A stretch of DNA of 64,000 bases, taken from NCBI GenBank assembly GCA_964401055.1, contig CAYNWW010000002.1, positions 39,935 to 103,934 of the forward strand, given 5' to 3'. A model generated the notes under the pieces. It saw nothing but the letters and a program-made list of their open reading frames with translations. It searched no databases and was not told where the DNA came from. Below, one piece after another: positions 3,183-53,663 of this stretch. The position numbers were made by a program, and so were the translations under genes. The number at the start of each line of letters is the position of its first letter. The stretch's first letter is position 1. Source of the stretch: an uncultured Candidatus Saccharibacteria bacterium. GTDB taxonomy: Bacteria > Patescibacteriota > JAUYIX01 > CAYNWW01.

Positions 3183-4343
3183 CTATCTCAAGTATTTCGC
3201 CACATTTTTCTGGTGCTCATCAAACGTCTTTGCATAGATGACTTCGCCTGTCTGCGGAACAGTCAGGAAAAAGAAATAATCTGTCTGTGCGGGATTAATC
3301 GCGGCCTGGATTGCATCCATGCCCGGATTTGCAATTGGTCCGGGAGGCAGGCCGTTAATTTGATACGTATTATACGGCGTATTTGTTTTAGTAAACGCAC
3401 TTGCGTTGAGAGTTGGGTTAAGTGAAATCCCGTACTGAATCGTCACATCAGACTCTAGTCGTTTGCCTACCCGAAGACGATTGGTAAATACTCCGGCGAC
3501 TATTTTTTTATCTTGAGGAGTCTGAACTTCCTTCTCCAAAATACTTGCAAGCGTAATCACATCAGTCGACTTTCGCCCATCAAGCAGCAACTTCGCACGC
3601 ATATCATGCGTGAATTTTTTACCGAAGTTGCTAAGCATTTTGCGAATCAATATATCTGCGGTAGTTTTTTCATCCACGCGATAGGTATCGGGAAACAAAT
3701 ATCCCTCAAGTGTCGCCTTTGCGGGCAGCTCATGCACAAAATCGTAATCGTCAAAATACGCATGCGGACTTGCCACGCGCTTGGCAAAATCATCTGCATC
3801 AATAGTGCTCTGCGCACGAACCTGTTCTGTCATCTGCTTTGCCGTCCAGCCCTCGACAAATGTCAGGCTTTGCTCTATAAGGGCCTGTTTTTGATGCGCC
3901 AAGACATGAGCAATATCCTGCATCGTCATTGATGCATTCAAGTGGTACGTACCTGGCTGAAAATATCCAGAGATTCCCTCTTTCAAAGTAAGCCACTGAA
4001 ACACATACGCATTGCTGATTAATTTTTTATCCTGAAGGCGCTTACTGATATCGGCTACACGATCGCCCTGAGAAATAATAAAATCAGACGAAGCGGCTTT
4101 TGCTGCATCGCGCGTCACGGGCTGGCGCATCAGTTGTTGTGCGTAGAAATACCCGCCCACGCCCACGCCGGCAAGTATTAAGAAAAGTCCCGCAATAATA
4201 CCACAACAATTCCAAAATCTTCCGGTTTTTTTTGCGCGCTTGTGAGCGAGCGCTTCAAGCTCTGGCATAGGAACTTGCGAAGCGGGAGCCACAACTGGTG
4301 AGGACGGAACCTGAAATTGCTGACGAGGCGGTTGGATTTCCAT
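3183..4343 (-). CDS. mltG: Endolytic murein transglycosylase MltG/YceG family
   Basis: The 386-aa protein has an N-terminal TM anchor and the segment LASILEKE..DKKIVAGVFTNRLRVGKRLESDVTIQYG typical of the YceG/MltG family. Confidence 0.7.
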   Translation of the reverse strand: MEIQPPRQQFQVPSSPVVAPASQVPMPELEALAHKRAKKTGRFWNCCGIIAGLFLILAGVGVGGYFYAQQLMRQPVTRDAAKAASSDFIISQGDRVADISKRLQDKKLISNAYVFQWLTLKEGISGYFQPGTYHLNASMTMQDIAHVLAHQKQALIEQSLTFVEGWTAKQMTEQVRAQSTIDADDFAKRVASPHAYFDDYDFVHELPAKATLEGYLFPDTYRVDEKTTADILIRKMLSNFGKKFTHDMRAKLLLDGRKSTDVITLASILEKEVQTPQDKKIVAGVFTNRLRVGKRLESDVTIQYGISLNPTLNASAFTKTNTPYNTYQINGLPPGPIANPGMDAIQAAINPAQTDYFFFLTVPQTGEVIYAKTFDEHQKNVAKYLR

Positions 4344-4346
4344 ATG

Positions 4347-5462
4347 CTAGAGATATTGAGTGAATTTTTGCTGCTCGAGCATCTCGACAATCTTTTTGAT
4401 TTCTTGTACGCGATCAAGCGGACACACCAGCACAGCTTTATCAGTCTCGATCACTGCCATATCACTAAGACCAACAGTCGCGATCATTTTTCCGCTTGTG
4501 CCGTAAATTACGCTTCGCTTCGTATCGATAGTGAGATGCTCAGCTTGTGTAAGATTTTGATCGCCGGTGACGAGCAGGTCACGTAGCGCAGCAAATGAAC
4601 CAATATCCGTCCATCCGATATCGGCTGCAATCACTGCCATGTGCGGCGCCTGCTCGATGATCGCATAATCAATGGCGATTTTTTCCATATCGTGGTACTC
4701 GGTCTTAAGCACTTCTTGCTCGCGCGGCGTACCGATTGCATCGTGAATTCGCATCAAGCGCGCATACATATCTGGACGAAATTGTTTGAACAGATCAAGG
4801 ATTGTCGATGCCTTCCAGACAAACATATTTGCATTCCACAAAAATGTTCCGGCTTTGACAAACTGCTCAGCGACGTCACGCGCAGGCTTTTCCTTAAACT
4901 GTTTTACTTTATACACTTGGTGCTCGCCCACCTTCTCCATTTCAACGCCCATCTCGATATAACCATAGCCTGTTTCGGCATAGCTTGGCTTGATGCCTAT
5001 CTCCACCAAATGATGCGGATGCTTTGCGACAAACTCAGCGCCCGCGCGAATTGCGCCCACAAACGTGTCTGAATACTTAATCACATGATCAGAGCCCAAG
5101 CTTGCAATAATTGCTTCCGGATCCGCATGATGCGCATACACAGCTTCCAGGCCGATTGCAGCCGCCGTATCTTTGCGCTCCGGCTCAACGATAAAAAGTG
5201 GCTGCACATGCTCAACGCCTTTCAACGTTTTGAGTGTCTGAGTGGCTTGCGCCTGGGCATGCGATAAAAATTGCGCATTCGTAGAAATGATAAGCTGGTG
5301 CTTTTGCTCTTGAAGCAAAACCGCAAGACGACGGATTGTAAGCTCAAACGTACTTTCATCCTTAATCATCGGATAAAATTGCTTGGGCATTTGTTGCGTA
5401 CTCAACGGCCATAATCGCGTCCCGGCTCCACCCGCACGAATCACAATGTGCATACAGGTCAC
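4347..5462 (-). CDS. manC: Mannose-1-phosphate guanylyltransferase (nucleotidyltransferase family)
   Basis: The N-terminus IVIRAGGAGTRLWPLS...PKQF is the sugar-nucleotidyltransferase G-x-G-T-R motif. The 371-aa size fits a GMP/ManC-type enzyme. Confidence 0.7.
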   Translation of the reverse strand: MTCMHIVIRAGGAGTRLWPLSTQQMPKQFYPMIKDESTFELTIRRLAVLLQEQKHQLIISTNAQFLSHAQAQATQTLKTLKGVEHVQPLFIVEPERKDTAAAIGLEAVYAHHADPEAIIASLGSDHVIKYSDTFVGAIRAGAEFVAKHPHHLVEIGIKPSYAETGYGYIEMGVEMEKVGEHQVYKVKQFKEKPARDVAEQFVKAGTFLWNANMFVWKASTILDLFKQFRPDMYARLMRIHDAIGTPREQEVLKTEYHDMEKIAIDYAIIEQAPHMAVIAADIGWTDIGSFAALRDLLVTGDQNLTQAEHLTIDTKRSVIYGTSGKMIATVGLSDMAVIETDKAVLVCPLDRVQEIKKIVEMLEQQKFTQYL

Positions 5463-5516
5463 TTAGATATTATGCTCACAGCATAGCACAAAACCGACCG
5501 TCTGGTCACGCCACAA

Positions 5517-6221
5517 TCAGGAGCCAAAATTGCGCTTGCGTGCACGAAAATCCTGAAGCGCGGCGTCAAATTCGGCTTCTGTAAAATCGGGCCAAAGCGT
5601 ATTGGTAAAATAAAGTTCGCTGTAAGACGACTGCCACAACAAAAAATTGCTGAGTCGTTGCTGACCGCCCGTACGAATAATCAGCTCGGGATCTTTTTGC
5701 GATGTCGTATACAGATGTTGCTGAATCAGTTCTTCAGAAATCTGGTCCGGCGCCGTGCCCGCGACAACAAGCTCGCGCACTGCGTGAACGATCTCGCCGC
5801 GACCTCCATAACTCAATGCAATGTTAAGAGTAAGCTGCTGGGAATTGTTTTCAGCCAAATAGCGCGTTGTTTTTTCAAGCGCCTCGCGAACATATTGCGG
5901 AAAATCAGCAATCTCACCGATTGCGCGGAGATGAATCCCGTTTGCAAACAATTCCGCGCGCTTCTTGCGCAAAAATCTCACAATCAACCGAAGCAAGTAC
6001 GTGATTTCCTGCTTTGTACGGCGCCAATTTTCAGTCGAAAAAGCATACACAGTGAGCGTTTTGACACCTCTGCGAATGCAGGCCTTCATGATATTTTCCA
6101 AAGCCTCAACACCTTTTTCGTGTCCCTTGATGCTCGGAAATCCGCGCGTCGTTGCCCATCGTCGATTACCATCCATAATAATAGCAACGTGCTCTGGGAC
6201 AATTTGTGGCGAGTGAGTCAT
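5517..6221 (-). CDS. uppS: Undecaprenyl-diphosphate synthase (cis-prenyltransferase)
   Basis: The sequence HVAIIMDGNRRWATTRG...TVYAFSTENWRR...SYGGR is the conserved signature of the UPP synthase family. Confidence 0.9.
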   Translation of the reverse strand: MTHSPQIVPEHVAIIMDGNRRWATTRGFPSIKGHEKGVEALENIMKACIRRGVKTLTVYAFSTENWRRTKQEITYLLRLIVRFLRKKRAELFANGIHLRAIGEIADFPQYVREALEKTTRYLAENNSQQLTLNIALSYGGRGEIVHAVRELVVAGTAPDQISEELIQQHLYTTSQKDPELIIRTGGQQRLSNFLLWQSSYSELYFTNTLWPDFTEAEFDAALQDFRARKRNFGS

Positions 6222-7384
6222 TAGGATGATCGATCAACCATATAATCAAGAATTCCTTCCAGAAAATCAGAAGTTTCTTGCGTAAAATGAATGCGTTCCA
6301 GCTCGGACAAGGCTTGCTCTTTGTGCATATTCATCTGCTGCATACAATATTCTTCCGCACCGATCGTGCGCAGAATTTCTTGGGTTCGCGCGACATCCGC
6401 GGCGGTCAAATTTTTATTCCCAAGCGCATGATTCAAAGCCGAAAGCTGATCTCGATCAGCATGCGCACGCGCAAAATGCACCAGAATAGTTTCCTTACCT
6501 TCTTTGATGTCTGATCCAACCGGCTTGCCGATTTTTTCTTCCGTTCCAAACATGCCAATCACATCGTCGCGTATTTGATAGATCAATCCCACGTGATACG
6601 AGAACCGCGCCAGCGCCTTGAGCGTATTTCGATCCTCAACGCCGGCCAGCCTCGCCGCCATCATGAGCGGCCCCTGCATGGTGTATTGAGCAGTTTTCAA
6701 ATCATAAATTTGCAAAATATCCGACTCGTGAATATCGCCAAAAAGACTTTTCCAGACATCGATAAGCTCGCCGTAGCCGGCTTTTTGCGTCATGACGTTG
6801 AGCTCCCGCATGATAGAAATTTTCATCGCCGAGTCAATCTCGAGAGCGAGTAATAAATCTTGCGCAAATGTTTGCAAAATATCTCCGGCAACAATCGCCA
6901 TAGACTCACCCACATGACGCGTGCGCGGTGTGATCTCATGCGCATCAAGACCAACAGAACGACTGTACAGGCCGCGATACAATTCGTGCATAGCCGGACC
7001 GCCACGACGCAGGCGATCTTCATCGATAATGTCATCGTGCACGAGCAAGTAGGCATGAATAAGTTCAGCCGCAACGCCACAGGTCAACGCAGACTGTTCA
7101 TCCTTACCGCCAAATCCTTTGTACGCCATATACAGGAGAGCAGGACGAAAACGCTTGCCCGGCCTGAGCAAAAAATCTTTGATATAAAAAAGAAGCTGAT
7201 CGATTTCGCGCAAACCTCCCCCCTCCGAATCTGCGAACTCAAGGCGCAATTCACGCGCTTTTTGATCTATCGTTGCAGCAAGAAGCGGATCTATATGTTG
7301 TCGTTGAAGAGATTTGAGAGTGCTAATAGCTGAATTTTTGAGCGCTTCCGAGGTGATCTCGGAGGTAACAGTTGAAGAAGGCAT
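6221..7384 (-). CDS. trans-Polyprenyl diphosphate synthase (FPP/GGPP synthase family); chain length cannot be determined from sequence.
   Basis: The first aspartate-rich motif is LLVHDDIIDED and the second is IRDDVIGMFG. At 387 aa it is longer than a typical IspA. It overlaps the uppS start by 1 nt. Confidence 0.85.
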   Translation of the reverse strand: MPSSTVTSEITSEALKNSAISTLKSLQRQHIDPLLAATIDQKARELRLEFADSEGGGLREIDQLLFYIKDFLLRPGKRFRPALLYMAYKGFGGKDEQSALTCGVAAELIHAYLLVHDDIIDEDRLRRGGPAMHELYRGLYSRSVGLDAHEITPRTRHVGESMAIVAGDILQTFAQDLLLALEIDSAMKISIMRELNVMTQKAGYGELIDVWKSLFGDIHESDILQIYDLKTAQYTMQGPLMMAARLAGVEDRNTLKALARFSYHVGLIYQIRDDVIGMFGTEEKIGKPVGSDIKEGKETILVHFARAHADRDQLSALNHALGNKNLTAADVARTQEILRTIGAEEYCMQQMNMHKEQALSELERIHFTQETSDFLEGILDYMVDRSS

Positions 7385-7420
7385 GAGTGTTGAGGTATAA
7401 GTTCCTGAATTGGCTTTTTA

Positions 7421-9349
7421 TTATACCAAAGGAACTCGGACAAAAAAAGTGCTTCCCCGACCTTCGCCTGCGCTCTCTACCCACACGTCTGCATTTTGAA
7501 CTTTGAGAAGATTTTTCACAACGTAGAGACCAATACCCGATCCGCTGGTGTTGATCTTGTTGCTATTTTTGCCGCGGGAAAATTTCTGGAACAATTGGGT
7601 AATTTCTTCCGGGCTAATACCCACGCCAGTGTCACGAATTTTGATAATGAGATCCGGGCGCTTGATTTCCGTGCTAATTTCCACATAGCCTTGGGGCGTG
7701 TATTTGATCGCGTTGTCGATCAGGTTTGAGAATACTTCGGTCATTTTTGTCGGATCCGCTTTCACGAGGGGCCAGACGCTTGACGGAGTAACGATCAGGC
7801 GAATGTGCTTTGGCTCAGCGATCGGTTCGAGCTCTTTGACGATGTTGGTGACGATGTCTTTCAGTTTTACCTTGAGAATCTCCACTTTCAGGCGGCCCCC
7901 TTCGATGCGCGACACGTTGAGGAAATCGCTCACGAGCTGGATGAGCCGGTTGGTGTTTTCATAGACAATGTCCACCACTTCATCTTGCTGCTTGGGGATT
8001 GGGCCGAAATCACCTGCTTTGAGCATGGAGAGATAGCCTTTGATGCCGGAGAGCGGCGTGCGGAGTTGGTGCGAGGCGATGGAGAGGAATTCGGATTTGA
8101 TGTTGTCGATGCGCACGAGCTCTTGGTTCACTTCGTTAAGTTTTGCGGCGCGCTCTTTTTCCGTCACATAGAGACGGGCATTTTCCATACCGACACCGAC
8201 TTGCGAGGCAAATGAATTCATGAGCTCTTTGTCGCGATCAGTAATTTCAGCAATGGACTTGTCGAGAAGAAAAATAAGCGAGCCGAGAATTTTCTCTCTC
8301 ACAATAATCGGCACAGCCGCACCCGCTTTCATGCCCACAAGAGACTGCATCGCATTTGCAGTTACTTTTGGCAAAGCGCTTTGCGAAACCAAATCTGAAA
8401 AATCACTCGTGACAATGAGTCGACGCTCTCTGATTGATCTGCTTGATGCGCTTTCAGAAATGTCCACTTGCGCTTCGTGCTCCAAAAAAGGCTTCTCGAG
8501 CATGCGCTGCGCCTGAGAAATGAGAGGAATGTTGGTCACCGCAAACGCCTTGTTCATGCGCGTCTCCCAATTCATAATCGTCAGGATGCCACCAATAAAT
8601 CCGAGGTGTTTCAGGTTGGAAGGAATGCTGTCGACCACCTGCTGCCCCACTGTCCCGAAGTCGAGTGTCTCAGTGGTTGTCTTAACTATTTCAAAGAGTG
8701 CGCGCAGGTCTTTTGCTTGAGCGTCGTAGGCTTTGATTTGTCCTTGGAGCTTGTCGAAGAGTTGGGCGTTGTAGAGCGCGATGGAGATTTGGTTGGCAAA
8801 TATTTGAATTAAATCAAGGTCGTGCTTACTTATTACTTGTTGATCAAATGCCACGGCCATAGCACCAATCGCCTCCTCTTTTACCATTAGCGGAATAGCA
8901 AGCATTGTCTTGAGTCGTAAAACACCCTGAACATATCCAGATGCGTCTTTTGAAAGCAATGGATAAGTAAAGCTACTCAACTTATCAGATTTTTCTATTT
9001 TTTTATTTTTTACTGCTTGAACCAAAATATTTTCTTTTTCTTCCATTGAATAGCCCAAATCATGAACCGATCTATTCATTGCCTTTTCGGCAAAATTCAC
9101 TAGAATTTTTGGGAAGCGAAAATCTCTCAATAGTAGCTTTTTCCCTTCGCCATTCAAAACATACAAACTCGGAAGTTTTAACTGCAGGAGCTTTACGAGC
9201 CTATCTAAAATTAATCTAATAACTGCACCAGAATCAACAAAACCCGTAATAGCACCCGTAATTTCTTTTAGCAGCAGAATCTCTTCCCTGTTGACATACA
9301 ACTCTTTTTCCTGATCGGGCGCTTTTTTCCTAAGAATTCCTAGAAACAT
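7421..9349 (-). CDS. Cytoplasmic sensor histidine kinase with GAF domains, HisKA and HATPase_c. The ORF extends to 9424, but the Met at ~9349 is the likelier start, which keeps the overlap with the upstream gene small.
   Basis: The H-box reads SIASHQLRTPLSGIKGYLSML; N/G1/G2 boxes occur at the C-terminus (DTGVGISPEE..GSGIGLYVV); there is no TM segment. Confidence 0.8.
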   Translation of the reverse strand: MFLGILRKKAPDQEKELYVNREEILLLKEITGAITGFVDSGAVIRLILDRLVKLLQLKLPSLYVLNGEGKKLLLRDFRFPKILVNFAEKAMNRSVHDLGYSMEEKENILVQAVKNKKIEKSDKLSSFTYPLLSKDASGYVQGVLRLKTMLAIPLMVKEEAIGAMAVAFDQQVISKHDLDLIQIFANQISIALYNAQLFDKLQGQIKAYDAQAKDLRALFEIVKTTTETLDFGTVGQQVVDSIPSNLKHLGFIGGILTIMNWETRMNKAFAVTNIPLISQAQRMLEKPFLEHEAQVDISESASSRSIRERRLIVTSDFSDLVSQSALPKVTANAMQSLVGMKAGAAVPIIVREKILGSLIFLLDKSIAEITDRDKELMNSFASQVGVGMENARLYVTEKERAAKLNEVNQELVRIDNIKSEFLSIASHQLRTPLSGIKGYLSMLKAGDFGPIPKQQDEVVDIVYENTNRLIQLVSDFLNVSRIEGGRLKVEILKVKLKDIVTNIVKELEPIAEPKHIRLIVTPSSVWPLVKADPTKMTEVFSNLIDNAIKYTPQGYVEISTEIKRPDLIIKIRDTGVGISPEEITQLFQKFSRGKNSNKINTSGSGIGLYVVKNLLKVQNADVWVESAGEGRGSTFFVRVPLV

Positions 9350-10232
9350 GGTTTTTTTCGTTTTTGAATATACTCGTGTCAATTTTATCACTAAAATCCC
9401 ATTTTTTGTAAAATGCGAAGGCAAGGCTGGCTACGTTCAAACAAAAATCTTTCAGATCAGAATTATCATGTTTGCGCAGGTCGTTAGAAAGTAATTCTAT
9501 ATCCTTCTGCGCTGTAGCAAATATTAATTCTTTTGCCTCTTTAACTTTTAAATTCTTCCGCTCTAATAAGAACGATACCGCATTCACTTTCCCTTCTTCT
9601 TGCTCTTTTTCAAATGACCTAACATCATTCGCTAGCCTCGTAACAAGAAACAATCTATCGGCGCTTCTAAGAAATTTTTCCAACTCCTTGGCTGACTTAT
9701 GAGCCACTCGCTCATTAGAGAGAATAAAACATGACAAGAATAATGGCGTACCTATACTATACTTACCCTGCTCGATATATTCGCCCTCATCTACTTTAGC
9801 ATGTAATATTCTATTTGTATTTTCAAAAATCATTGCGTCAAGAGTTTTTGATAATGTTTGCTTCCAATAGTCTAGCAAAAATTTTCTTTTCACTTTGCCG
9901 CATAAAGAGTCAGTTATCTCTGAAATAATGCTTTGATAGTCAGCAAAAGCATCAATTTGCTGCTTTTTAAGTCCTGCAGCAAATAGGTCTTTAAATTTTC
10001 TTACATCTGACAGGCTAGCATTTGTATCAAGGTAATCGTCAATAGCAAATAGCCAAAGAACAACCTTGCTTAGAATAAGCTTGCTTTCAATATCAACCTG
10101 AAGCTTTTTCGTTGTATAATCCACAAAAAAACAGCTATTCTCGATACGAGAGCTCCTAACTACTGTGTGCGAATTCGCCCATTGACTAATATCACGTACG
10201 AGCACATCGTATGTACCACTACTATCTTTCAT
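9330..10232 (-). CDS. Class I terpene synthase (small bacterial terpene cyclase fold)
   Basis: A DDxxD metal-binding motif occurs in LWLFAIDDYLD. An NSE/DTE triad, LANDVRSFEKE, lies about 140 residues downstream. The spacing and the 300-aa size fit bacterial class I terpene synthases. Confidence 0.6.
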   Translation of the reverse strand: MKDSSGTYDVLVRDISQWANSHTVVRSSRIENSCFFVDYTTKKLQVDIESKLILSKVVLWLFAIDDYLDTNASLSDVRKFKDLFAAGLKKQQIDAFADYQSIISEITDSLCGKVKRKFLLDYWKQTLSKTLDAMIFENTNRILHAKVDEGEYIEQGKYSIGTPLFLSCFILSNERVAHKSAKELEKFLRSADRLFLVTRLANDVRSFEKEQEEGKVNAVSFLLERKNLKVKEAKELIFATAQKDIELLSNDLRKHDNSDLKDFCLNVASLAFAFYKKWDFSDKIDTSIFKNEKNHVSRNS

Positions 10233-10241
10233 ACACTTAAA

Positions 10242-11621
10242 TTAATAATGACTAAAAAGACTACTTGTTGCATAAAGGCATTTATCAATCCAACAATAGG
10301 TGTTTTTCATAATCCTGGGATTAAAAATCTGCTCAACAAAAGATTTATCTACTAACACTTTATTAAGCAAAATTCTTTCAATATTTATCCAAAACGGATC
10401 ATATTTTAACATTGGCCGATTTAGAACTTTATTCTCTCCAAAGACCTTCAAAATTAACATTGCCGGATAATAAGGAGAGACATGCCACTTATCGTGAAAC
10501 AGTTTGCCCTCTTCTTGAAATTTTAATAACCGCCTGAAAATTTTTTCTTCGACCTCTTTGTCGTTATAACCAACCTCTTGTATAGCCTCTAGCAAATGCG
10601 CAATATGTGATGGACTAGACTCCATTTCTCCCCGAAAACAATAAATCCTATCACCATCAATAAATTTTCTTATAACTTCATGATTTACATCGACATTATT
10701 TTTTGAAAAAATTTTTATCGCGACAGCTGTATCATCCAAATCAGGAATATTTACAAATTTTGACCAACCGATTCCTCTATCATTATTCCAGTATTTTTTT
10801 AAATATTGGACGGCCTCATCTATATCATTCTGTAGATATTTTTCTATTTTAAGGTAATATATCTCACTCAAAACCCACAATCTAGCGAATATATCAATCG
10901 GGTAGTTCACGGGTAGAGCATTTTTAAATTTTTTTAGTGTACCTTTTATATAAGCAAGTGCAGCCTGATTCTTTGTCTTTAGAAACATAAAGGCAGTAGA
11001 CGAAGGGGAATTCAGAAATGATCCGTTCTCTGATTGTTGAACAAGGATCTTCTTATAATCCAGCAGACCCTCCAAGCCCTCCAAAGAATGAAGCAGCGTT
11101 GTCTGGCCGCTATATATATAAGCGACAGGAATCATTTTTAATTTTAGCTCCCTAGCCATTTCGATTTCTTGAATGATCAGACTATCGTACCTAAGCTTAA
11201 TTCCTAAAAACCGCGCAGTTTTTAATAGTGCGGGAAAGATTATCTCAAACCCCACAGTAGCTCGTGCGTCATTCCTTAAATTTTCTAGGTTGGCCGAGAT
11301 ATACTCCTCTCCCCTTTTGATCCTTCTAGGAGAGACGTTCCAGGTTTTTAAAGCAATTATAGAGCTTAATGTGCAGATAATTCTGTCATGATAATATTCT
11401 ATCCCCTTAGCCCCCCACGAGCCGTCAGCAATCTGATGAACCTGTAGCCAGCGAAGACACTCTGGAAACATTGGGCGACTAGGATCTTCTTCGGAGGGAA
11501 TACGCGCAACCCAAGCGGTATCATATGCAGAAGGCGAGATATAGCCTTCATCAATATTGCGGAGCAGTCTTTTTGCCTTTCCAACAAGAGCTCTTTTGAA
11601 TTTTTCCTCTTTTATAAGCAC
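10242..11621 (-). CDS. Class II diterpene cyclase (copalyl/halimadienyl-diphosphate synthase-like, DxDD type)
   Basis: The catalytic DxDD motif occurs as NIPDLDDTAVAI. The N-terminal SAYDTAWVA motif is characteristic of CPS-type class II cyclases. A QW-like QVHQIADGSWG motif is also present. The protein is 459 aa. Confidence 0.65.
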   Translation of the reverse strand: MLIKEEKFKRALVGKAKRLLRNIDEGYISPSAYDTAWVARIPSEEDPSRPMFPECLRWLQVHQIADGSWGAKGIEYYHDRIICTLSSIIALKTWNVSPRRIKRGEEYISANLENLRNDARATVGFEIIFPALLKTARFLGIKLRYDSLIIQEIEMARELKLKMIPVAYIYSGQTTLLHSLEGLEGLLDYKKILVQQSENGSFLNSPSSTAFMFLKTKNQAALAYIKGTLKKFKNALPVNYPIDIFARLWVLSEIYYLKIEKYLQNDIDEAVQYLKKYWNNDRGIGWSKFVNIPDLDDTAVAIKIFSKNNVDVNHEVIRKFIDGDRIYCFRGEMESSPSHIAHLLEAIQEVGYNDKEVEEKIFRRLLKFQEEGKLFHDKWHVSPYYPAMLILKVFGENKVLNRPMLKYDPFWINIERILLNKVLVDKSFVEQIFNPRIMKNTYCWIDKCLYATSSLFSHY

Positions 11622-11692
11622 GGTATTTACAATAAGCCTAAATTATATAAATTATAACACGACAACCTAATTTTCGATATTGTTGAACTTAA

Positions 11693-12973
11693 TCATAGGG
11701 AGTACAATTTCTCATCTTCATATATCGGAAATTTCAAAACGAATTCACTGCCAATTCCTCTTTTGCTCTGTACGGTAATTTCTCCCTTGTGCGCGTCCAT
11801 GATCTGTTTTGCTACAAATAGTCCAATGCCATCGCCCTCTTCTCGTTGCACAACATCTTGATGCGATCTATAAAACTTTTGAAATATACGATCAAGATCT
11901 GACGCGTCAATTCCAACACCGGTGTCTTGCACCGATACGCAGCTCATATGCGCATCATCAAACGCAACAACACGCACAGCCCCTCGCTGCGGTGTGTATT
12001 TAATCGCATTTATCAGCACATTATCAATCACTTCAACGACTCGCATTTGATCACAAAAAATTCTTTTCTTTGCTTTCAGATCAGACACCACGCTTAGATG
12101 CTTTTGCACAAAAAGCGGACGCAGCGAGTCAAGCTCTTTTGCAACCAAAAAATTCAAATCAACGACAGTTTTCTCTCCTGACTCAACATTGTGACCTGAC
12201 AATGTTCTCTGCCCAAATCGCCGAATAACCGCATGCAGGTTGTCGGCGGAATTCATTATCGATCGAATATTTACATCGTTCTTCTGATTTTTATCCGTCA
12301 TCTGCAACAACTCAGCATTTCCCTTAATCGCGGTGAGAGGATTTTTCAATTCGTGCGAAGCTTCAGCAAAAAATTGAGACTGCAACTCCGCATGCATACG
12401 CGCAGAATAAATTGCTCCGCCAACTGCATTTGCAACCGCCTCCAAAACATCAACGTCACGATCAAACATAAATTCATCATTGGCAACAAGTGCCAAGCCG
12501 CCTATCACTTTCTTGCCAAGCTTGATCGGTAAGGCAATAAACAATTTATATCGAAACATCGCCTGCAGCACGTCACAATTACGCTTAGAAACAATAGGAA
12601 ATAAAATATCAGATAGTCGCGTCGTAGTAAACAATTTTCCTTCCCGCAATGCACGCGCCGATAGTAACGTTGGGTGATTCACATCTAGTACGAGGCCGGC
12701 CAGCGCTTTTTGTGAAAATTTTTCCAAGAAATTTTGAAATTTATATGGCATTTGCACTCGTACGACACGAAATGTTTTTTCGTCCTTGCTCATAAGCGTA
12801 ATGCCAGAAACGCGATATCCAAGTTGAACCAAGAGCTCCTTGAGTGCAATGCGACAAATATCGTCTACATCAAAGTTTCCCGATATTTTTGCAGATACAC
12901 TTTTAATTAAGCTCAGCTGAGCCTTATATGTTGCAATTATCTCATCTTCAGTCGGATAAAGTCTCTTTGTCAT
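11693..12973 (-). CDS. Cytoplasmic sensor histidine kinase (GAF + HisKA + HATPase_c). It probably starts at the Met of AMTKRL, giving an ATGA overlap with the upstream HK stop.
   Basis: The H-box is ASHELKNPLTAIKGNAELLQ; the C-terminal ATPase boxes are DTGVGIDASDL..GDGIGLFVAKQ. I checked the ATGA overlap directly in the sequence (cat at 12971-12973, tca at 12970-12972). Confidence 0.8.
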   Translation of the reverse strand: MTKRLYPTEDEIIATYKAQLSLIKSVSAKISGNFDVDDICRIALKELLVQLGYRVSGITLMSKDEKTFRVVRVQMPYKFQNFLEKFSQKALAGLVLDVNHPTLLSARALREGKLFTTTRLSDILFPIVSKRNCDVLQAMFRYKLFIALPIKLGKKVIGGLALVANDEFMFDRDVDVLEAVANAVGGAIYSARMHAELQSQFFAEASHELKNPLTAIKGNAELLQMTDKNQKNDVNIRSIMNSADNLHAVIRRFGQRTLSGHNVESGEKTVVDLNFLVAKELDSLRPLFVQKHLSVVSDLKAKKRIFCDQMRVVEVIDNVLINAIKYTPQRGAVRVVAFDDAHMSCVSVQDTGVGIDASDLDRIFQKFYRSHQDVVQREEGDGIGLFVAKQIMDAHKGEITVQSKRGIGSEFVLKFPIYEDEKLYSL

Positions 12974-14898
12974 AGCGGTATTTGCACAACAAACTCCGCA
13001 CCCTTCCCTATCTCGCTCTTCACGCTTATCGTCCCACCATGCGTCTCCACGATTGACTTGCAAATCGCAAGCCCGAGGCCGGTGCCACCAAGTGCCTGAT
13101 CGCGCTCCTTGTCGACTCGGAAAAATCGCTGAAAAAGAAGTGGAATTTTATCAGCCGGAATCCCGGGACCAAAATCACGTACGGTAAAATGACACATATT
13201 CTGCTTCTTGTACGCGTTGATCAAAATACGCTCGTTGCTCGGGCTGTATTTAATAGCATTGCTTATCAAATTCGAAACAACCTGAGCCATTCCATCCCCA
13301 TCGAAAAACCCGATCAGCGGCGACTGCACGCTCGTCTCAAATCGGACACGTTTTGTGTTTGCCAAAGGCCTCAAAGCCTCGAGCTCGCGAAAAAAAATAT
13401 CAGCAATATCCACATTTTCACGGTGCAATTCGCGCGAACCACTTTCTTGTTGAGACAACAAAAGCAACTGACTGACCGCTCGCGTCATGCGATTGGCAGA
13501 CTGAATAATGTGATGCAACGCATCGCGCGACTTATCACCCGCAACAGGATTCAACAAGGAAACCATTTCCGCATTTCCTTTAATTGAGGCGAGTGGATTT
13601 TTCAACTCGTGCGACGTATTTGCCAAAAATAAAACCTGAGCTTCGTTCAATTTCTGCAGCTCTTTGACGTGAGCGCGCAAATCCTGAGAAAGCTGTGCGT
13701 GCTCGATTGAGCTCGCGATATGATGCGCAAATGTTTGCAGGAGATCGAGCTCCGATTCCGTTGTTCCGTCGGTAAATTTCGAAACAGAAAGCACTCCGAT
13801 GGCATGGTCGCCCACGATCAAAGGTATGGCCACAACTGTTTTGACGCCAACAGCTTTTTGCACAAGCTGAGCTGCTGCGTTGTTAATGAGTGGATGTGCA
13901 GCTTCGCCATAATCATTCGTCACAAAAACTTTTTTATCACAAAACGCACGCACAAATATATTTTTCTTATCTTCAAGAGAAAATTCAACCTGCGAGAGCG
14001 CCGTGTTGATCGCAAAACCGAATATATGCTTCTGAGTTTCGGTCGCGGCTAACTTCTCGAGGACCAACTTATTTTGTCTCTGGATAAATAATCCCGAAAT
14101 ATCATATCCAAATTGTTTACGTAAGCTCGCAGTAATTGCATCAAATACCTCTTTCACATCAAGCGACTGATTAATCAATGCCGTGGACTCAAGTATGGAC
14201 TTGAGCTGGTCTGATTGTTTTTTTACAAAAGCAATTTGCTTCTGATTTTCCTCAAACTTTTGCGCATTGGAGAGCGCGACTGCGATTTGATTTGCAAATG
14301 TCTGATAGAGCTGCGTATCGGTTTCGCTTATTCGCGCATCCTCAAATCCCATCGTAATCACGCCGATGGACTTTTGTTGCACAAGCAGCGGGATGGCTAT
14401 CGCACTTTTTGATCCCGCCAATCGCTGAAACCCACGGCCCACATACGCAGGAGCAACTCCGCGCACAAAGTCAGCAAAATCTTCAGAATACAACATGCGC
14501 TGCTCAACAAAAGAGCGAACAACAATATTTTCCCTCTGTTCAAGTAGAAAATAGAGACTATTAATTTTCTGCTTCATAGCCTTCTCTACAAAGCGGACTG
14601 CGCGGGTACTGTTATTTGTTCCCTTGCACACTAAGCGCTGCGCCAGCTCATCCCACAAAAATAGCGTTGGCGTTTTTATACCCACGATTCCCGACACCCG
14701 GAATAAAATATGATCAATAAGTTTATTTGTATTATTGATACTGGATATTTCTTGAAGTATGGATTGAAAAATTGTCAGGATGTGCGCGGCCGATTTTACC
14801 TCATTCGACACCTGCTGCAGCCCAATCAACTGATCAACAAAACGCCGCTCCGCGCCCGTCGCCTGTTCTTGTTTTTGCTCAGTATTGATCAGCGTCAT
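12970..14898 (-). CDS. Cytoplasmic sensor histidine kinase with tandem GAF domains, HisKA and HATPase_c
   Basis: The H-box is NTSHELKNPLASIKGNAEMV; it has two GAF-like regions, ATPase boxes at the C-terminus, and no TM segment. Confidence 0.8.
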   Translation of the reverse strand: MTLINTEQKQEQATGAERRFVDQLIGLQQVSNEVKSAAHILTIFQSILQEISSINNTNKLIDHILFRVSGIVGIKTPTLFLWDELAQRLVCKGTNNSTRAVRFVEKAMKQKINSLYFLLEQRENIVVRSFVEQRMLYSEDFADFVRGVAPAYVGRGFQRLAGSKSAIAIPLLVQQKSIGVITMGFEDARISETDTQLYQTFANQIAVALSNAQKFEENQKQIAFVKKQSDQLKSILESTALINQSLDVKEVFDAITASLRKQFGYDISGLFIQRQNKLVLEKLAATETQKHIFGFAINTALSQVEFSLEDKKNIFVRAFCDKKVFVTNDYGEAAHPLINNAAAQLVQKAVGVKTVVAIPLIVGDHAIGVLSVSKFTDGTTESELDLLQTFAHHIASSIEHAQLSQDLRAHVKELQKLNEAQVLFLANTSHELKNPLASIKGNAEMVSLLNPVAGDKSRDALHHIIQSANRMTRAVSQLLLLSQQESGSRELHRENVDIADIFFRELEALRPLANTKRVRFETSVQSPLIGFFDGDGMAQVVSNLISNAIKYSPSNERILINAYKKQNMCHFTVRDFGPGIPADKIPLLFQRFFRVDKERDQALGGTGLGLAICKSIVETHGGTISVKSEIGKGAEFVVQIPL

Positions 14899-14906
14899 CG
14901 TATGTA

Positions 14907-15869
14907 TTAAGACTTTTTCTTCACCCGCGAGCGAGCGCGACGACTCACCCCGGCAGCCCCACGTTTTTTTGCAGCGACTGCATGCCGTTTCTTTGCCACA
15001 GCCCGAGCCGCAAACTCTGCAGCGGCCACCTTCGCGGCTCTATTCTTGTGATATGGACGCGGCGCCCCAGAATCAGACTCGGCACTAGCCCCGTCAGCCC
15101 CGCCCACTTTCACCAAAATCGGCCGCAACGCCGAAGGCCGCACATAATTTTGCGCATGTGCCCGCGCCGCAGCGCCTTTGAGTTTTTCCAGCTTATACCC
15201 CACACCATGCTGCGTATGAATGAGCTGATCAGCGCCCGCACACCCCAACGCCTTTCGCAAAAAACGAATATGCACGTCGATCGTATTTGTAAACGGATCC
15301 GTGTTCATGTCCCACACTTGCTCGAGCAGCATTGTGCGCGTCAACACCATCTCGGGATTGCGCAAAAAATATTCGAGCAGCGCAAATTCTTTTTTTCCAA
15401 GGGCCACCTCCCGACCGGCACGTTTCACAATTCGCTTTGGCAAATCCATTTCAATATCCTCATAAGTCAGCACTGAGCCACCCGCCTTCCCCGAAGAAAC
15501 AATCTCTCGCCGACTCAACGCACGAATCCGCGCAAGCAATTCTTCAAAAGAAAATGGCTTTGTTAAATAATCATCAGCACCCGAATCCAGCGCCGCCACT
15601 TTTGTTTGAGTGTCGTCCTTGGCAGTCAACAGCAAAATAGGTTTTGTTTTATTTTTCACTCCGTGCTCACGAAGCTGGCGGGTCAACTCCAGCCCGTCCA
15701 TCACCGGCATACTGATATCAAAAATAAATAAATCATACGGGTTTGTTTTTGCCAAATACAAACCCTCACCCCCGTCGTGCGCCACATCAACCACATGATG
15801 AAACGTGCGCAAGCCCTTACTCACAAAATTACTGATCGCCGGCTCATCCTCAACAAAAAGGATCTTCAT
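14907..15869 (-). CDS. OmpR-family response regulator (REC + winged-helix) with a ~90-aa Lys/Arg/Ala-rich C-terminal tail
   Basis: The N-terminus MKILFVEDEPAISNFVSKGL...DLFIFDISMPVMDGLEL is a receiver domain; a Trans_reg_C segment follows (LTRTMLLEQVWD..GVGYKL); the tail ...AKVAAAEFAARAVAKKRHAVAAKKRGAAGVSRRARSRVKKKS follows that. Confidence 0.85.
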   Translation of the reverse strand: MKILFVEDEPAISNFVSKGLRTFHHVVDVAHDGGEGLYLAKTNPYDLFIFDISMPVMDGLELTRQLREHGVKNKTKPILLLTAKDDTQTKVAALDSGADDYLTKPFSFEELLARIRALSRREIVSSGKAGGSVLTYEDIEMDLPKRIVKRAGREVALGKKEFALLEYFLRNPEMVLTRTMLLEQVWDMNTDPFTNTIDVHIRFLRKALGCAGADQLIHTQHGVGYKLEKLKGAAARAHAQNYVRPSALRPILVKVGGADGASAESDSGAPRPYHKNRAAKVAAAEFAARAVAKKRHAVAAKKRGAAGVSRRARSRVKKKS

Positions 15870-16079: not shown

Positions 16080-16131
16080 AAAAAAATGTTTGTGTCAACG
16101 AAGGATCTAGAATCCCTCGCTGACACAAACA
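16080..16131 (-). terminator. Rho-independent terminator of the 584-aa gene: an 11-bp perfect inverted repeat, followed on the minus strand by a U7 run.
   Basis: The arms tgtttgtgtca ... tgacacaaaca are perfect and plus-strand A7 sits at 16080-16086. The structure begins 22 nt after the stop at 16154. Confidence 0.6.
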
Positions 16132-16153
16132 CTGATCTGACCGCACGCCTCCT

Positions 16154-17908
16154 TTATTGAATCTCGCCTACATGGACCGCCTCGTGCCCATCGTCCAGAT
16201 ATTCACCGAACGACTCAAACACAAGGGTCTTGCCAGATACATGGTCTACAACCACGACATCCGCAAGTTGGTCCAAATTCACATCACGCACACAGACCGC
16301 ATAACGGCTCTCAGCGCCCGGCTGCACTGCTTGCACAACCAGGAACTGCGCATCATCTCGCGCGCCCTCAAACGAACCCTCAAGAGAAAGCGCCACATGA
16401 ATCGCGCCAGCCGTAGAATCAAGCGATACCAAATCAGCAAAACCATCCCCATCCACATCGCCTAGTGCAGACAATCCGCCGTTTGCAACAACACCGGCTC
16501 GCGCACCATAGATGACTTCAGCCCACGTCTCATGCCCCACAATCCGGCCGCGCTGAAAAAATTGCGTGCCGGTTTTGTCAGACTGATCAGACGTCGGGGC
16601 TCCCAGTGTCACAATTCCGTTTGCTGCCCGAAATGCATTCCAATACACACTGTGCACCAGGCGCACACGACCGTCAGATGAGTTGCGAATCATGGCGCCA
16701 GTGCCATAATAATCGCCTCCCTGAAAATCCTGAACCTGATACCCGTTCCAGTCGTGTACCGCCGCTGACGATGCGCCATTGGCGTACGGCACGCCCGGAC
16801 TGCGACGATCAGAACCATTCCAGATCATGCGGTTATAGCAATCGATAAAATCCTGCGTCGCATTCCAGGAGCCTTGCCCCGGAGATACGCCGCCATTGTA
16901 TGCGTATTGCACAAACCCACCATTGACCCAGCCATAATACGCACCATTGCCCATTTGGCGAGCCGAGCCCGAACGCAATGTAAACTCGTTCGTAATCGGC
17001 ACTCCAAACAAAGATGCGGGACCGCCCTGCGCAAACCAATTGGTCGCAAATCCACCGCGCACAACCCGAGCATCGTGTGCTCGCCCATTGGCATCGTCGA
17101 CAATAATACTTCGACCAAATACACCACCCTGGTAATCTTTTGCAAGCACCAAGTTGATGTTGTTGTTGTACCAGTGCAGATCGGAGGTAAGCGAACCAAA
17201 GTTCGCCACACCGCCATTCCTGTTGTACGCCGCATTTATTGCCTGATTTGCCAAAAACGCCTGCGGCTCGCGCCACTTGGCGAGTGTCGCCGAGTTGTTG
17301 CTATCGTATCCGGCCACATAATCACTATCGTGTCCAGGCGTATATGCGCCGATGCGTACACCCGTATGCAGATGGTGCCAATTCTCACCTGCACACGTGT
17401 AATAGTCTGCGACTTGCGCCACATACTGCCCCACACGCACGTTCATGCCAACTGAAGCAATACCGGCTTGCGCATTCTCGTTGTACACACCACCTTGCAG
17501 ATGGCCAAGCAATACCGTAATCGCTTGCCCGTCAGGAACTGTAGACTCGACGACCAATACATAGCCCTGGCCATAGCGTCCCCCGCTCCCACACGGTCCA
17601 ATCCAATTACCGTACCCATTAACCAACATACTCAAACGAACCACGCCGTTGACCGGTGAAAACACCTTGGTTCCAGTCGGAGTCCGCGACACAACCGAAT
17701 CTTGCCCCAAGTGATGACCACTCGAGCTAAATCCGCTGCTGCCATTGATCTCACCGAAATCCAACGCCTGGTTGCCCACCTTCAACGGACCGCCATCCAC
17801 CTTGTACCCCCACTGATCCAGCGGAAACGCAACTTGCGCCTGCGCCACACCAAGGAAAGCAAAGGCATTTACACACCAAAGAGCTCCCAAAACACATGAG
17901 CGATGCAT
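16154..17908 (-). CDS. Secreted protein with an M23-like peptidase region and C-terminal FG-GAP/VCBS-type repeat; GC-rich and Trp/Gly/Asn/Tyr-rich.
   Basis: It has a signal peptide; HLQGG...VGQYVAQV...WHHLHTGV resembles the M23 HxH region; GDVDGDGFADLV is an FG-GAP-like repeat. Codon composition differs from its neighbours. Confidence 0.4.
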   Translation of the reverse strand: MHRSCVLGALWCVNAFAFLGVAQAQVAFPLDQWGYKVDGGPLKVGNQALDFGEINGSSGFSSSGHHLGQDSVVSRTPTGTKVFSPVNGVVRLSMLVNGYGNWIGPCGSGGRYGQGYVLVVESTVPDGQAITVLLGHLQGGVYNENAQAGIASVGMNVRVGQYVAQVADYYTCAGENWHHLHTGVRIGAYTPGHDSDYVAGYDSNNSATLAKWREPQAFLANQAINAAYNRNGGVANFGSLTSDLHWYNNNINLVLAKDYQGGVFGRSIIVDDANGRAHDARVVRGGFATNWFAQGGPASLFGVPITNEFTLRSGSARQMGNGAYYGWVNGGFVQYAYNGGVSPGQGSWNATQDFIDCYNRMIWNGSDRRSPGVPYANGASSAAVHDWNGYQVQDFQGGDYYGTGAMIRNSSDGRVRLVHSVYWNAFRAANGIVTLGAPTSDQSDKTGTQFFQRGRIVGHETWAEVIYGARAGVVANGGLSALGDVDGDGFADLVSLDSTAGAIHVALSLEGSFEGARDDAQFLVVQAVQPGAESRYAVCVRDVNLDQLADVVVVDHVSGKTLVFESFGEYLDDGHEAVHVGEIQ

Positions 17909-18003: not shown

Positions 18004-19158
18004 TTAGAGTATCCGGAATGACTGGAGTATCTTGTCAAACTGGCCATCGAGAAATTGTTCCGGACTCTGGAAAGATTTTGCCTGAAGTACTACATACTTA
18101 CCTGCCGCCTGCTGCACAATCGCCGCCGCCCGCGTCCCAAACCCATCACTTATCGCAGTTGCATAAGGGCGAATCACCAACCCATCCTTACCATCAATCT
18201 TCTGTTTTGAAATCGGCAGCTGGGCAATATCCGCAAATTCAGCTCCGGGCGCAGTATATGTCTGTAAAATTTGATCAATTGTTTTGTCAGACTTCACAAT
18301 CGAAACCGTCAAAAAGCTAGTGTCTTCGGCATGACCATTTTGCACAAACGTGCCATCCGGGTCCGCTGCACGAAATACCGCAGAACCCAATTCAGTCGTA
18401 CGAGTCCATTCTTGCGGCACGCTCACCTGAAAACCGGATTTGTCATCGCGATACACCTGAACCGCATGATCATCAACAAAGAAATGTGCAAACAAATCAA
18501 GCCACTGGCTTTCCGTCTGAGCAAAGTCGCCGATCAATACGTCATGAGGACTAAGTGAATTACGACGAGCTTCGTCATACTGATCAAGCTCTTGGACCGC
18601 GAGCATATTCCATTTTTTTGCTTGGTCAACATGAGGCAATGCGTATGAAATGGCAAATTTCTTTGTGCCGTCAAATTCGCGTACTTCTGTAAACTCAACA
18701 AAACGTCGCGTCGAAGTTATACCTCGTTGAACCCGAAGCGCGTCAAATCCTTGAGCACGCAACTTATCCGCAATCACGTCTTCAGGTTGCGCCAAGTCAA
18801 GATCGGCTCCAAACGACTGCTTCGGCTTGCTTGCGTCAGTCCGAGCGCTTTCATCGGTAAAAATGAATATGTGCGCACCGGGATGTTCAGAAAAGCTCAG
18901 GTCAAAAGTGCCAGAAGAAGAGTGAGTTTCGGCGATCCCGCCCCACGCACTCGCATATTCAAACGACAAGCCAATAACATCATTCTTATATAATGTGGTC
19001 CCAATCGTTTTTGCAGGAGCGACCGTGCTCGTGGATACAGAAGGTCGCAACGATTCTAGATTGCAGCTGGCGCCAACCAGCGTCAGAACAGATGCAAGCG
19101 CGGCGAAAGAAATTGCAGAGCGGGCTTTGAGTGGCATGTGATCAAACTTATTTTTCAA
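18004..19158 (-). CDS. Hypothetical secreted protein or lipoprotein (384 aa)
   Basis: It has an N-terminal signal with a Cys-containing lipobox-like LVGASC; I recognise no domain. Confidence 0.4.
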   Translation of the reverse strand: MKNKFDHMPLKARSAISFAALASVLTLVGASCNLESLRPSVSTSTVAPAKTIGTTLYKNDVIGLSFEYASAWGGIAETHSSSGTFDLSFSEHPGAHIFIFTDESARTDASKPKQSFGADLDLAQPEDVIADKLRAQGFDALRVQRGITSTRRFVEFTEVREFDGTKKFAISYALPHVDQAKKWNMLAVQELDQYDEARRNSLSPHDVLIGDFAQTESQWLDLFAHFFVDDHAVQVYRDDKSGFQVSVPQEWTRTTELGSAVFRAADPDGTFVQNGHAEDTSFLTVSIVKSDKTIDQILQTYTAPGAEFADIAQLPISKQKIDGKDGLVIRPYATAISDGFGTRAAAIVQQAAGKYVVLQAKSFQSPEQFLDGQFDKILQSFRIL

Positions 19159-51935: not shown

Positions 51936-52016
51936 GACACACCTCCTGCGCCCATACTGAAGATAACTGCCTCAATTGTCAACAAACACACGCCGAAATA
52001 ATGCTATAATTCCCTT

Positions 52017-52442: not shown

Positions 52443-52507
52443 ATAATTTATTGACACAGCATCCCGAAATTGCATTACAAATCAAAAGCAACAATTAATT
52501 TAAGGAT

Positions 52508-53653: not shown

Positions 53654-53663
53654 ATGATTTCAT

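Follow-up and report, generated by a model that had tools for sequence, protein, structure and literature searches.

The 64-kb stretch of DNA analysed here (the window, on contig CAYNWW010000002.1) carries ten co-directional genes on its minus strand at 3183-15869, as confirmed by a check of open reading frames (ORFs). A class II diterpene cyclase (DTC) and a class I terpene synthase (TS) lie among genes for cytoplasmic histidine kinases (HK1, HK2 and HK3) with GAF sensor domains. The full order is response regulator (RR), HK1, HK2, DTC, TS, HK3, prenyl diphosphate synthase (PPS), UppS, ManC and MltG. The string is probably a conserved operon of the candidate phyla radiation (CPR) which couples a two-step, labdane-type diterpene pathway to a dedicated two-component system and to lipid-carrier and envelope genes. 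The evidence comes from the folds and motifs of the two terpene enzymes, from their ranking among known enzymes, and from recurrence of the gene order in other loci.

The cyclase, the synthase and their substrate

DTC matches the Pfam family Terpene_synth (PF01397; 38.9 bits, cutoff 37.6) and, weakly, SQHop_cyclase_C. It carries SAYDTAWVA at residues 31-39 and DLDDTA at residues 294-299. A phmmer search of the PDB returns the plant enzymes abietadiene synthase (3s9v, 3e-83) and AtCPS (4e-82) first; Rv3377c (2e-40) and PtmT2 (5e-9) follow. Identity to the plant enzymes is 35-37% over ~380 residues, with TM-scores of 0.73-0.75. The best Foldseek match of the AlphaFold2 model (predicted local distance difference test score, pLDDT, 82.9) is AtCPS 4lix (E 2e-24, TM 0.75, 35% identity), and AgAS, SmMDS, Rv3377c, Tpn2 and PtmT2 are matched as well. 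All three approaches place the protein in the gamma-beta double alpha-barrel fold. The general acid is present: DLDD (294-297) aligns with DIDD of both AtCPS and AgAS, and D294 and D296 are invariant in the cyclase family alignment. From these features, DTC is expected to cyclise geranylgeranyl diphosphate (GGPP) to a bicyclic prenyl diphosphate.

TS matches Terpene_syn_C_2 (5e-20) and Terpene_synth_C (3e-16). Its AlphaFold2 model (pLDDT 91.5, predicted TM-score 0.90) has the all-helical alpha fold, and the leading Foldseek matches are Sat1646, LrdC, Stt4548 and the alpha domain of AgAS, with TM-scores of 0.70-0.78 to class I synthases. Both metal motifs are found at helix ends. IDDYLD occupies residues 64-69, and its DDYLD (65-69) ends helix 48-70; NDVRSFEKE (202-210) ends helix 181-205. 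Among 40 relatives, D65, D69, N202, D203 and E210 do not vary. Against the PDB, a profile of the TS family finds tolypothrichol synthase (2e-36) and Stt4548/Sat1646 (4e-33), then plant alpha domains (1e-20 to 1e-15), with bacterial sesquiterpene synthases behind; by this measure TS is nearest to enzymes that use copalyl-type diphosphates. The best profile and fold matches, Sat1646 and Stt4548 (7e4n, 7e4m), tolypothrichol synthase (9kgb) and LrdC (6oh6), are bacterial labdane-related class I synthases whose substrates are in all cases bicyclic prenyl diphosphates supplied by a class II enzyme, although their identity to TS in structural alignments is only 12-18%. TS is very divergent: an exhaustive HMMER search detected 148 relatives among 1.84 billion representative proteins, and a word-indexed search with TS as the query returned TS itself only.

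The initial annotation had read these two proteins, from their letters, as a class II cyclase and a class I synthase forming a labdane-type diterpene cassette. Profile and structure searches, which could have revealed a wrong fold or misplaced Asp-rich motifs, revealed neither in DTC or TS. DTC is placed in the gamma-beta fold and TS in the alpha fold, and the cassette reading holds at the level of sequence, profile and predicted fold.

PPS has the polyprenyl synthase fold, with Asp-rich motifs DDIID and DDVIG; the latter matches DDLLG in 3lk5. Its best PDB relatives are this GGPP synthase (3lk5, 6e-38) and a farnesyl diphosphate synthase. The best NCBIfam model is of the IdsA/GGPP_syn type, with every equivalog score below its curated cutoff. 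In the FARM context, IHAYLLVHDDIIDED, an insertion is lacking, and positions -5 and -4 are Tyr and Leu. Under the chain-length rules of Ohnuma and Wang, this combination fits archaeal-type GGPP synthases, and the predicted product of PPS is C20 (GGPP) or C15/C20.

In the proposed pathway, GGPP would come from PPS, which would probably supply its neighbour UppS with an allylic primer as well. DTC would protonate GGPP via the DLDD acid and close two rings, giving a copalyl/labdadienyl-type diphosphate. TS would then ionise that diphosphate at the Mg2+ site formed by DDYLD and NDVRSFEKE and complete the skeleton. There are no tailoring enzymes, so the predicted product is a simple diterpene hydrocarbon or alcohol, a type of compound which would partition into membranes and could diffuse.

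The lack of tailoring enzymes also bears on another explanation. Adjacent class II and class I genes are, as is well established, typical of classical antibiotic-type secondary-metabolite clusters, such as those for platensimycin or terpentecin (examples in PMC11469919). It is extremely improbable that the window holds such a cluster. No cytochrome P450 is found among window ORFs of at least 150 aa, in agreement with the initial annotation, and methyltransferase, glycosyltransferase, transporter and resistance genes are absent from the string and from the window. Moreover, the host genome is reduced and the string is joined to housekeeping envelope genes.

A similar gene arrangement is that of the gibberellin operon of rhizobia and phytopathogens, in which the class II and class I genes, for copalyl diphosphate synthase (CPS) and kaurene synthase (KS), are likewise adjacent or overlapping and a GGPP synthase gene is included (PMC11469919). 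However, the gibberellin operon has P450s, ferredoxin and a short-chain dehydrogenase/reductase, none of which is found in the window, and it lacks the kinase linkage. The absence of P450s sets the window string apart from operons of the gibberellin type. The TS family matches BjKS (4w4r) only distantly (3e-7). The halimadienyl diphosphate cyclase of the M. tuberculosis tuberculosinol pathway, Rv3377c (6vpt), is a detectable homolog of DTC but far remoter than the plant enzymes. That pathway yields an untailored diterpene lipid which acts on the host cell, and the window cassette can be likened to it as a predicted class II route to an untailored diterpene. The partner of Rv3377c, Rv3378c, has a cis-prenyltransferase fold and not the class I alpha fold.

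Fused relatives and plant terpene synthases

The top database matches of DTC are unnamed metagenomic proteins of 738-788 aa which contain both Terpene_synth and Terpene_synth_C (44-49% identity). Stand-alone cyclases of ~500 aa come next, including proteins from Ca. Pacebacteria and Ca. Dojkabacteria. Hundreds of plant CPS and other terpene synthase (TPS) sequences rank third, at 36-42% identity. Two of the fused proteins are encoded on contigs of Anaerolineae/Chloroflexi metagenome-assembled genomes (MAGs; loci L002 and L003). Residues 4-280 of TS align with the C-terminal alpha domain (~450-737) of the same fused proteins (E 1e-16 to 1e-18, in a small database), and these proteins are among the top 13 matches of TS in the exhaustive search. 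DTC and TS are collinear with the fused proteins P0004, P0005 and P0007. Collinearity of two adjacent genes with one fused gene (a Rosetta-stone relationship) is an independent argument that DTC and TS work together, and the pair would be the unfused counterpart of the bacterial tridomain cyclase-synthases.

Fused bacterial diterpene enzymes were first described in 2024, as ChjDCS, CseDCS and StrDCS (Chen et al. 2024, PMC11469919; correction PMC12302711). Separated halves of these tridomain enzymes are each active, and the enzymes were published without close unfused relatives (PMC11469919). They have both catalytic units in the same N-to-C order as the window pair, and ChjDCS (L006) is 41% identical to DTC. 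However, each is a single gamma-beta-alpha polypeptide, whereas the window has two genes separated by a stop codon and a gap of 9 nt. DTC is also nearer to the plant enzymes than ChjDCS and CseDCS are, and is without their 100-aa DKW-WIxK segment. Closer to DTC than any characterised enzyme are the fused Chloroflexota-type MAG enzymes (P0002-P0007, L002, L003). Metagenomes and Chloroflexota MAGs contain at least eight uncharacterised fused gamma-beta-alpha enzymes of this kind (P0002-P0007, P0010, P0015, L002, L003), which have a DKW-WIxK segment of plant length. Mean identity to eleven plant sequences over 484 aligned gamma-beta columns is 35-38% for the fused MAG enzymes, above the published bacterial DCSs; it is 32.7% for DTC, 28.7% for ChjDCS and 21.6% for CseDCS.

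Neighbour-joining trees were bootstrapped from two column sets. Plants are monophyletic and exclude DTC (bootstrap 100), and plants plus the fused MAG enzymes form a group with bootstrap 100. Adding the short unfused cyclases (window, P0017, P0019, P0066 and P0022) gives a group with bootstrap 97-98. On these trees, DTC falls in the unfused sister group of the fused Chloroflexota-type tridomain synthases plus plant TPS.

The segment from DKW to WIxKxxY differs in length among these groups, in line with the branching order of the trees. Ordinary bacterial cyclases, including ChjDCS and CseDCS, have 87-106 aa with a DGSWG...EETAY hairpin; the window has 67 aa and P0017, P0019 and P0066 have 69-72 aa; fused MAG enzymes have 44-47 aa and plants 42-43 aa. 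The bacterial motif DKWHVSPYY is kept in DTC and lost in fused and plant enzymes. We infer that the window-type cyclase branches before the fusion and did not arise by fission of a fused gene of the plant-like kind; the direction of evolution is deduced in the same way. An apparent shared loss of WIxK in fused and plant enzymes was rejected as a MAFFT artefact, since every one of them has the motif. The last 58 residues of DTC (residues 402-459; window 10242-10415) lack the hairpin that ordinary bacterial cyclases have; WIDKCLY is retained at the end, and the C-termini of P0017, P0019 and P0066 are similarly short.

AtCPS (3pya/4lix; TPS-c) and the bifunctional abietadiene synthase (3s9v; TPS-d) are the best sequence and structure matches of DTC, which shares SAYDTAWVA, TTLLHSLEG, NGSFLxSPSSTA and DxDDTA with them almost verbatim. 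Unlike the plant enzymes, DTC has no transit peptide, comes from a bacterial host, and has PVNYP for PNV in addition to the retained DKWHVSPYY. It has the PF01397 signature of the plant TPS family, but neither the fused alpha domain nor a position inside the land-plant clade. As it is unfused, the DTC-TS pair belongs neither to the plant TPS family nor to the fused bacterial DCS class.

The high similarity to plant enzymes, and the fact that the root of the tree is assumed, could also be accommodated by descent from a plant TPS gene which bacteria acquired and which subsequently split, in which case the resemblance to plants would be secondary and uninformative about plant TPS origins. Such a transfer is very unlikely, as the plants are nested among bacterial sequences as one monophyletic group (bootstrap 100). 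DTC keeps both DKWH(V)SPYY and a spacer of intermediate length, features which are lost in the fused and plant enzymes, and the fused relatives are found in ordinary bacterial neighbourhoods on long Chloroflexota MAG contigs.

GAF kinases and the conserved neighbourhood

All three kinases lack an N-terminal membrane segment. The H-box reads SHQLRTPL in HK3 and SHELKNPL in HK2, and RR has the receiver motif DISMP. The three kinases and the single RR have the domains of a two-component system and may pair in phosphotransfer. The receiver and winged helix of RR occupy residues 1-229. The remainder (residues ~230-320; window 14907-15182) is a basic tail of ~90 aa, rich in Ala, Arg and Lys, with a histone-H1-like composition. 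The RR of locus L093 is 62% identical to the window RR over residues 132-228 and ends after the winged helix, without a tail.

The triad of DTC, TS and GAF kinase recurs in at least seven diverged loci. The window order is repeated in L090/L093, with one gene inserted and HK2 absent (RR-HK-DTC-TS-HK-PPS-UppS-GH18/FG-GAP-ManC-MltG). Identity between the window and L090 is 48% for HK3, 43% for PPS, 64% for UppS, 56% for ManC, 37% for DTC and 31% for TS. An HK1-like kinase is found at the same position in L090 (28% identity, 243 bits), and the TS of L090/L093 (P0123) comes out top when the entire representative library is searched with the window TS. In L088 and L089, an opposite-strand GAF protein is followed by DTC, TS and a GAF kinase with overlapping genes. 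L007 (Ca. Dojkabacteria) has PPS, three tandem regulators with helix-turn-helix (HTH) and GAF domains, DTC, a 294-aa protein and a GAF kinase. L061 has DTC and, further on, TS, a second TS-like gene and a GAF kinase. L059 (Ca. Pacebacteria) has a geranylgeranyl reductase and DTC, then, after intervening genes, UbiA and a GAF kinase, and later PPS. L058 (Patescibacteria) has a cyclase remnant of 84 aa, a DUF2600 gene which overlaps an HK3-type kinase gene by 4 nt, and a triple-GAF protein beside it. Among fused enzymes, a GAF-PAS kinase is encoded 2 kb upstream of that in L092.

In L090, L088, L089, L061, L059, L007 and L058, the gene directly downstream of the terpene synthase genes encodes an HK3 ortholog (27-48% identity). 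Each of these downstream kinases matches HK3 better than HK1 or HK2, and the alignment is full-length, including the sensor region. Across all retrieved loci, there are 15 kinases in 388 kb within 4 kb of a cyclase and 3 in 380 kb further out, a density five times higher near the cyclase. A metagenome scan with the HK3 sensor alignment returned the L058 contig and generic GAF kinases only. The initial suggestion that the terpenoid is signal-regulated is strengthened: the kinase linkage is evolutionarily conserved across loci and is no accident of one genome.

The GAF module persists where the output changes (kinase; HTH in L007; GAF-only proteins in L088, L089 and L058) and where the synthase family changes (DUF2600 in L058). 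Its retention through both kinds of change favours a sensor which reads the isoprenoid pathway. The GAF pockets, above all that of HK3, would most likely monitor a pathway lipid, either the diterpene or its prenyl diphosphate precursors. The kinases would tune the operon through the OmpR-type RR, possibly at the candidate extended -10 promoter before the cyclase gene.

Several of these loci have features of their own. In L058 (9947-11451, identical in L062), the cyclase remnant is 51% identical over the SAYDTAWVARIP region and is located immediately upstream of the DUF2600 gene. DUF2600 is the Pfam family of the Bacillus YtpB tetraprenyl-beta-curcumene synthase, and it looks as if one type of terpene synthase has been replaced by another beside the same sensor. 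The three regulators directly upstream of the Dojkabacteria cyclase (L007, 7654-9971) are tandem paralogous one-component proteins with XRE-type HTH and GAF domains. Geranylgeranyl reductase genes are found upstream of the cyclase in L059 (8695-9834) and L061 (6968-8104), and the GAF kinase gene begins within a UbiA-family prenyltransferase gene (L059 14008-14865; GC content 0.24 for the latter); this hints at further prenyl-lipid chemistry in the L059/L061 neighbourhood. In L091 (4750-13005), the genes after that of P0004, the closest fused relative of DTC, encode a PAS-GAF kinase, four single-domain receivers in a row and a cytochrome P450.

It is possible, though clearly less probable, that the same pathway operates while the cue for the kinases lies elsewhere, for instance in contact with a host, stress on the envelope or nutrient state. 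The diterpene would then be the effector, either a membrane-ordering lipid or a host-aimed molecule; in the membrane-ordering version it would be a hopanoid or sterol surrogate for a cell unable to make its own fatty acids. In the window and in L093 alike, the string runs into the envelope genes PPS, UppS, ManC and MltG; in relatives, genes for geranylgeranyl reductase and a UbiA prenyltransferase are found nearby; and tailoring enzymes are absent, all of which fits an effector. A precedent for two-component control of isoprenoid flux is given by the title of bioRxiv 10.1101/2022.12.05.519242. An unrelated cue accords poorly, however, with a GAF sensor which stays with the terpene genes despite changes of output (L007, L088, L089, L058) and of synthase (L058), and soluble kinases are poorly placed for direct envelope sensing.

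Base composition and similarity ranking raise a different question, namely whether the neighbourhood has any meaning. GC content is 0.37 in DTC and 0.36 in TS, against 0.45-0.52 in neighbouring genes and 0.47 in the window, and DTC is most similar to its counterparts in L059/L061 (44%), whereas HK3, PPS and UppS are closest to L090. Both are what would be expected of a recently acquired low-GC island which landed among kinases by chance. Synteny largely refutes this, making it a scarcely credible explanation: the gene order including RR, HK, PPS, UppS, ManC and MltG is repeated in L090/L093 at 31-64% identity, and the triad recurs in at least seven loci. The terpene genes are likewise low in GC relative to their surroundings in L090, L007, L058 and L061. 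Low GC is thus a property of the cassette and no sign of recent arrival here. Recent horizontal transfer as the sole cause of the low GC was dropped, as the syntenic L090 and the other loci are equally low.

A number of points weigh against the favoured reading of a diterpene operon under the control of its own lipid sensor. Terpenoid ligands are not known for any GAF domain, none came up in a literature search, and the kinases could respond to an unrelated cue. With five histidine kinases in 64 kb, the genome is kinase-rich. Identities of DTC and of HK3 orthologs are incongruent between loci (Pearson r 0.81, driven by two close pairs; Spearman p = 0.29), which suggests some exchange of synthase genes between lineages within a conserved frame. 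Genes of the methylerythritol phosphate and mevalonate pathways are absent from the window, so the supply of isopentenyl diphosphate cannot be checked there; the mevalonate pathway is present in many CPR lineages (PMC6107057). The product, its stereochemistry and the prenyl diphosphate chain length are predictions. His178 of DTC, in TTLLHSLEG, matches LHS of ent-CPS in the motif alignment, but Asn239 aligns with a His of AgAS and not with the Asn of AtCPS (PVNYP versus PNV, a shift of one position); with the catalytic-base positions mixed in this way, stereochemistry is not predictable. Residues 402-459 of the DTC model have pLDDT below 50. Finally, the window cyclase is placed as the immediate sister of plants plus fused enzymes with a bootstrap of only 47-54, in trees that are neighbour-joining only, with few plant sequences, no bryophytes and an assumed root.

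Layout of the window and biological meaning

The ten co-directional genes, with gaps or overlaps of 0-71 nt, are where the initial annotation had placed them, and its assignments (RR, three GAF kinases, class II and class I enzymes, PPS, UppS, ManC and MltG) are upheld by Pfam and NCBIfam. The motifs it quoted, SAYDTAWVA, DLDDTA, IDDYLD and NDVRSFEKE, were all located in the translated proteins. It erred in giving 5517-15869 as the span of all ten genes; ManC and MltG fall outside. The affinity of DTC to plant enzymes and the relation of the split pair to fused bacterial synthases had escaped it.

Table 1. Features of the gene string and its borders (window coordinates)
Feature	Position	Strand	Basis
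RR, OmpR-type response regulator, 320 aa	14907..15869	-	Pfam Response_reg 1e-27, Trans_reg_C 1e-24
HK1, cytoplasmic histidine kinase, two GAF	12970..14898	-	Pfam GAF x2, HisKA, HATPase_c
HK2, cytoplasmic single-GAF histidine kinase	11693..12973 (ORF 11693-13063)	-	Pfam GAF_2, HisKA, HATPase_c
Extended -10-like element TGTTATAAT	11651..11659	-	sequence match only
DTC, class II diterpene cyclase, 459 aa, GTG start	10242..11621	-	Pfam, PDB phmmer, AlphaFold2/Foldseek
TS, class I alpha-domain terpene synthase, 300 aa	9330..10232	-	Pfam, AlphaFold2, Foldseek, family profile
HK3, cytoplasmic two-GAF histidine kinase	7421..9349 (ORF 7421-9424)	-	Pfam GAF, HisKA, HATPase_c
PPS, short-chain trans-prenyl diphosphate synthase	6221..7384	-	Pfam polyprenyl_synt (PF00348) 2e-51
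UppS, undecaprenyl diphosphate synthase	5517..6221	-	Prenyltransf/UppS 1e-81; TIGR00055 267 bits (cutoff 109.55)
ManC, mannose-1-phosphate guanylyltransferase	4347..5462	-	Pfam NTP_transferase, ManC_GMP_beta-helix
MltG/YceG, endolytic transglycosylase, last gene of string	3183..4343	-	Pfam YceG 6e-80; TIGR00247
Terminator-like hairpin, 20 pairs and T-run, 3' of upstream FG-GAP gene	16086..16132	-	pattern scan

The hairpin sets the upstream limit of the string, and an intergenic region of 284 nt then precedes RR. RR and HK1 are 8 nt apart. HK1 and HK2 overlap in ATGA, the ATG of HK2 lying over the stop of HK1, so HK2 probably starts at 12973 (426 aa). HK2 is separated from DTC by an AT-rich spacer of 71 nt. 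This spacer holds TGTTATAAT, and the equivalent L093 spacer carries TGATATAAT, in each case as a sequence match only; TGTTATAAT is a candidate internal promoter for DTC, TS, HK3 and the genes downstream. TS and HK3 overlap by 20 nt if HK3 starts at ATG 9349. The gap between HK3 and PPS is 36 nt, PPS and UppS overlap in TAATG, and the last two gaps are 54 nt (UppS to ManC) and 3 nt (ManC to MltG). Promoter and terminator consensus scans gave background levels except for the hairpin, and the only hits of an Rfam scan were the four tRNAs; neither a riboswitch nor any further RNA was detected close to the operon. The ten-gene string is probably co-transcribed.

The best named matches of the DnaE encoded in the window are all from Patescibacteria, Parcubacteria, Kerfeldbacteria, Moranbacteria and Falkowbacteria, at 50-57% identity. 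The window is thus assigned, from DnaE best matches only, to a Patescibacteria/CPR bacterium, which agrees with the earlier guess of a streamlined genome. An identical contig is present in Logan SRR12487045. The rest of the window is housekeeping: ribosomal proteins, EF-Ts, pyrH, ribonucleotide reductase, RF1, ATP synthase, FtsW, DnaE, ThrRS and a tRNA cluster. Two further histidine kinases, of types GAF-PAS-HK and Cache-HAMP-HisKA, are found in a low-GC stretch (~0.40) at 57615-59399 and 60469-62231. In the latter, ORF 60675-62231 is without HATPase, which is encoded just downstream in another frame (60469-60699); this may reflect a frameshift, a pseudogene or an assembly error. ORFs of 188-381 aa in 46097-47128, 51144-54686, 56583-57149, 59407-60129 and 62311-63456 have no Pfam match at E <=1e-4; three of these are consecutive at 51.1-54.7 kb. 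Directly upstream of RR are genes for a secreted FG-GAP-repeat protein (16154-17908) and a PsbP_2-domain protein (18004-19158). Both protein types also come after the HK3-type kinase in L058 (13635-16892), and may be part of the same conserved neighbourhood.

The window pair is set apart from other bacterial class II and class I pairs by its CPR host, by its position next to the clade of fused and plant enzymes, and by its conserved GAF-kinase partner. A literature search found nothing relevant on these three points, on CPR diterpene synthases or on linkage of GAF kinases to terpene synthases.

For the plant TPS family, it is an open question which bacterial genes fused, and where. Here both halves have close unfused relatives, side by side. 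The indel series and the retained ancestral motifs order the states from ordinary bacterial to window type, fused and plant. The products of the window pair and of the fused MAG enzymes bear on whether ent-CPP/ent-kaurene chemistry predates plants. A bolder reading, which we regard as rather doubtful, is that DTC-TS is a living unfused CPS plus KS-like stage from before the plant TPS fusion and that the GAF kinases are receptors of the neighbouring diterpene. If true, this would be a bacterial diterpene 'hormone' circuit of synthase and receptor, with which ultra-small episymbionts would sense their own state or that of the host.

CPR bacteria have minimal metabolism and are host-dependent. 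A conserved pathway for a specialised lipid is unexpected in such organisms, and offers a handle on the chemistry between symbiont and host. The linkage of GAF domains to terpene synthases is a testable pointer to a new class of GAF ligand and to terpenoid signalling in bacteria.

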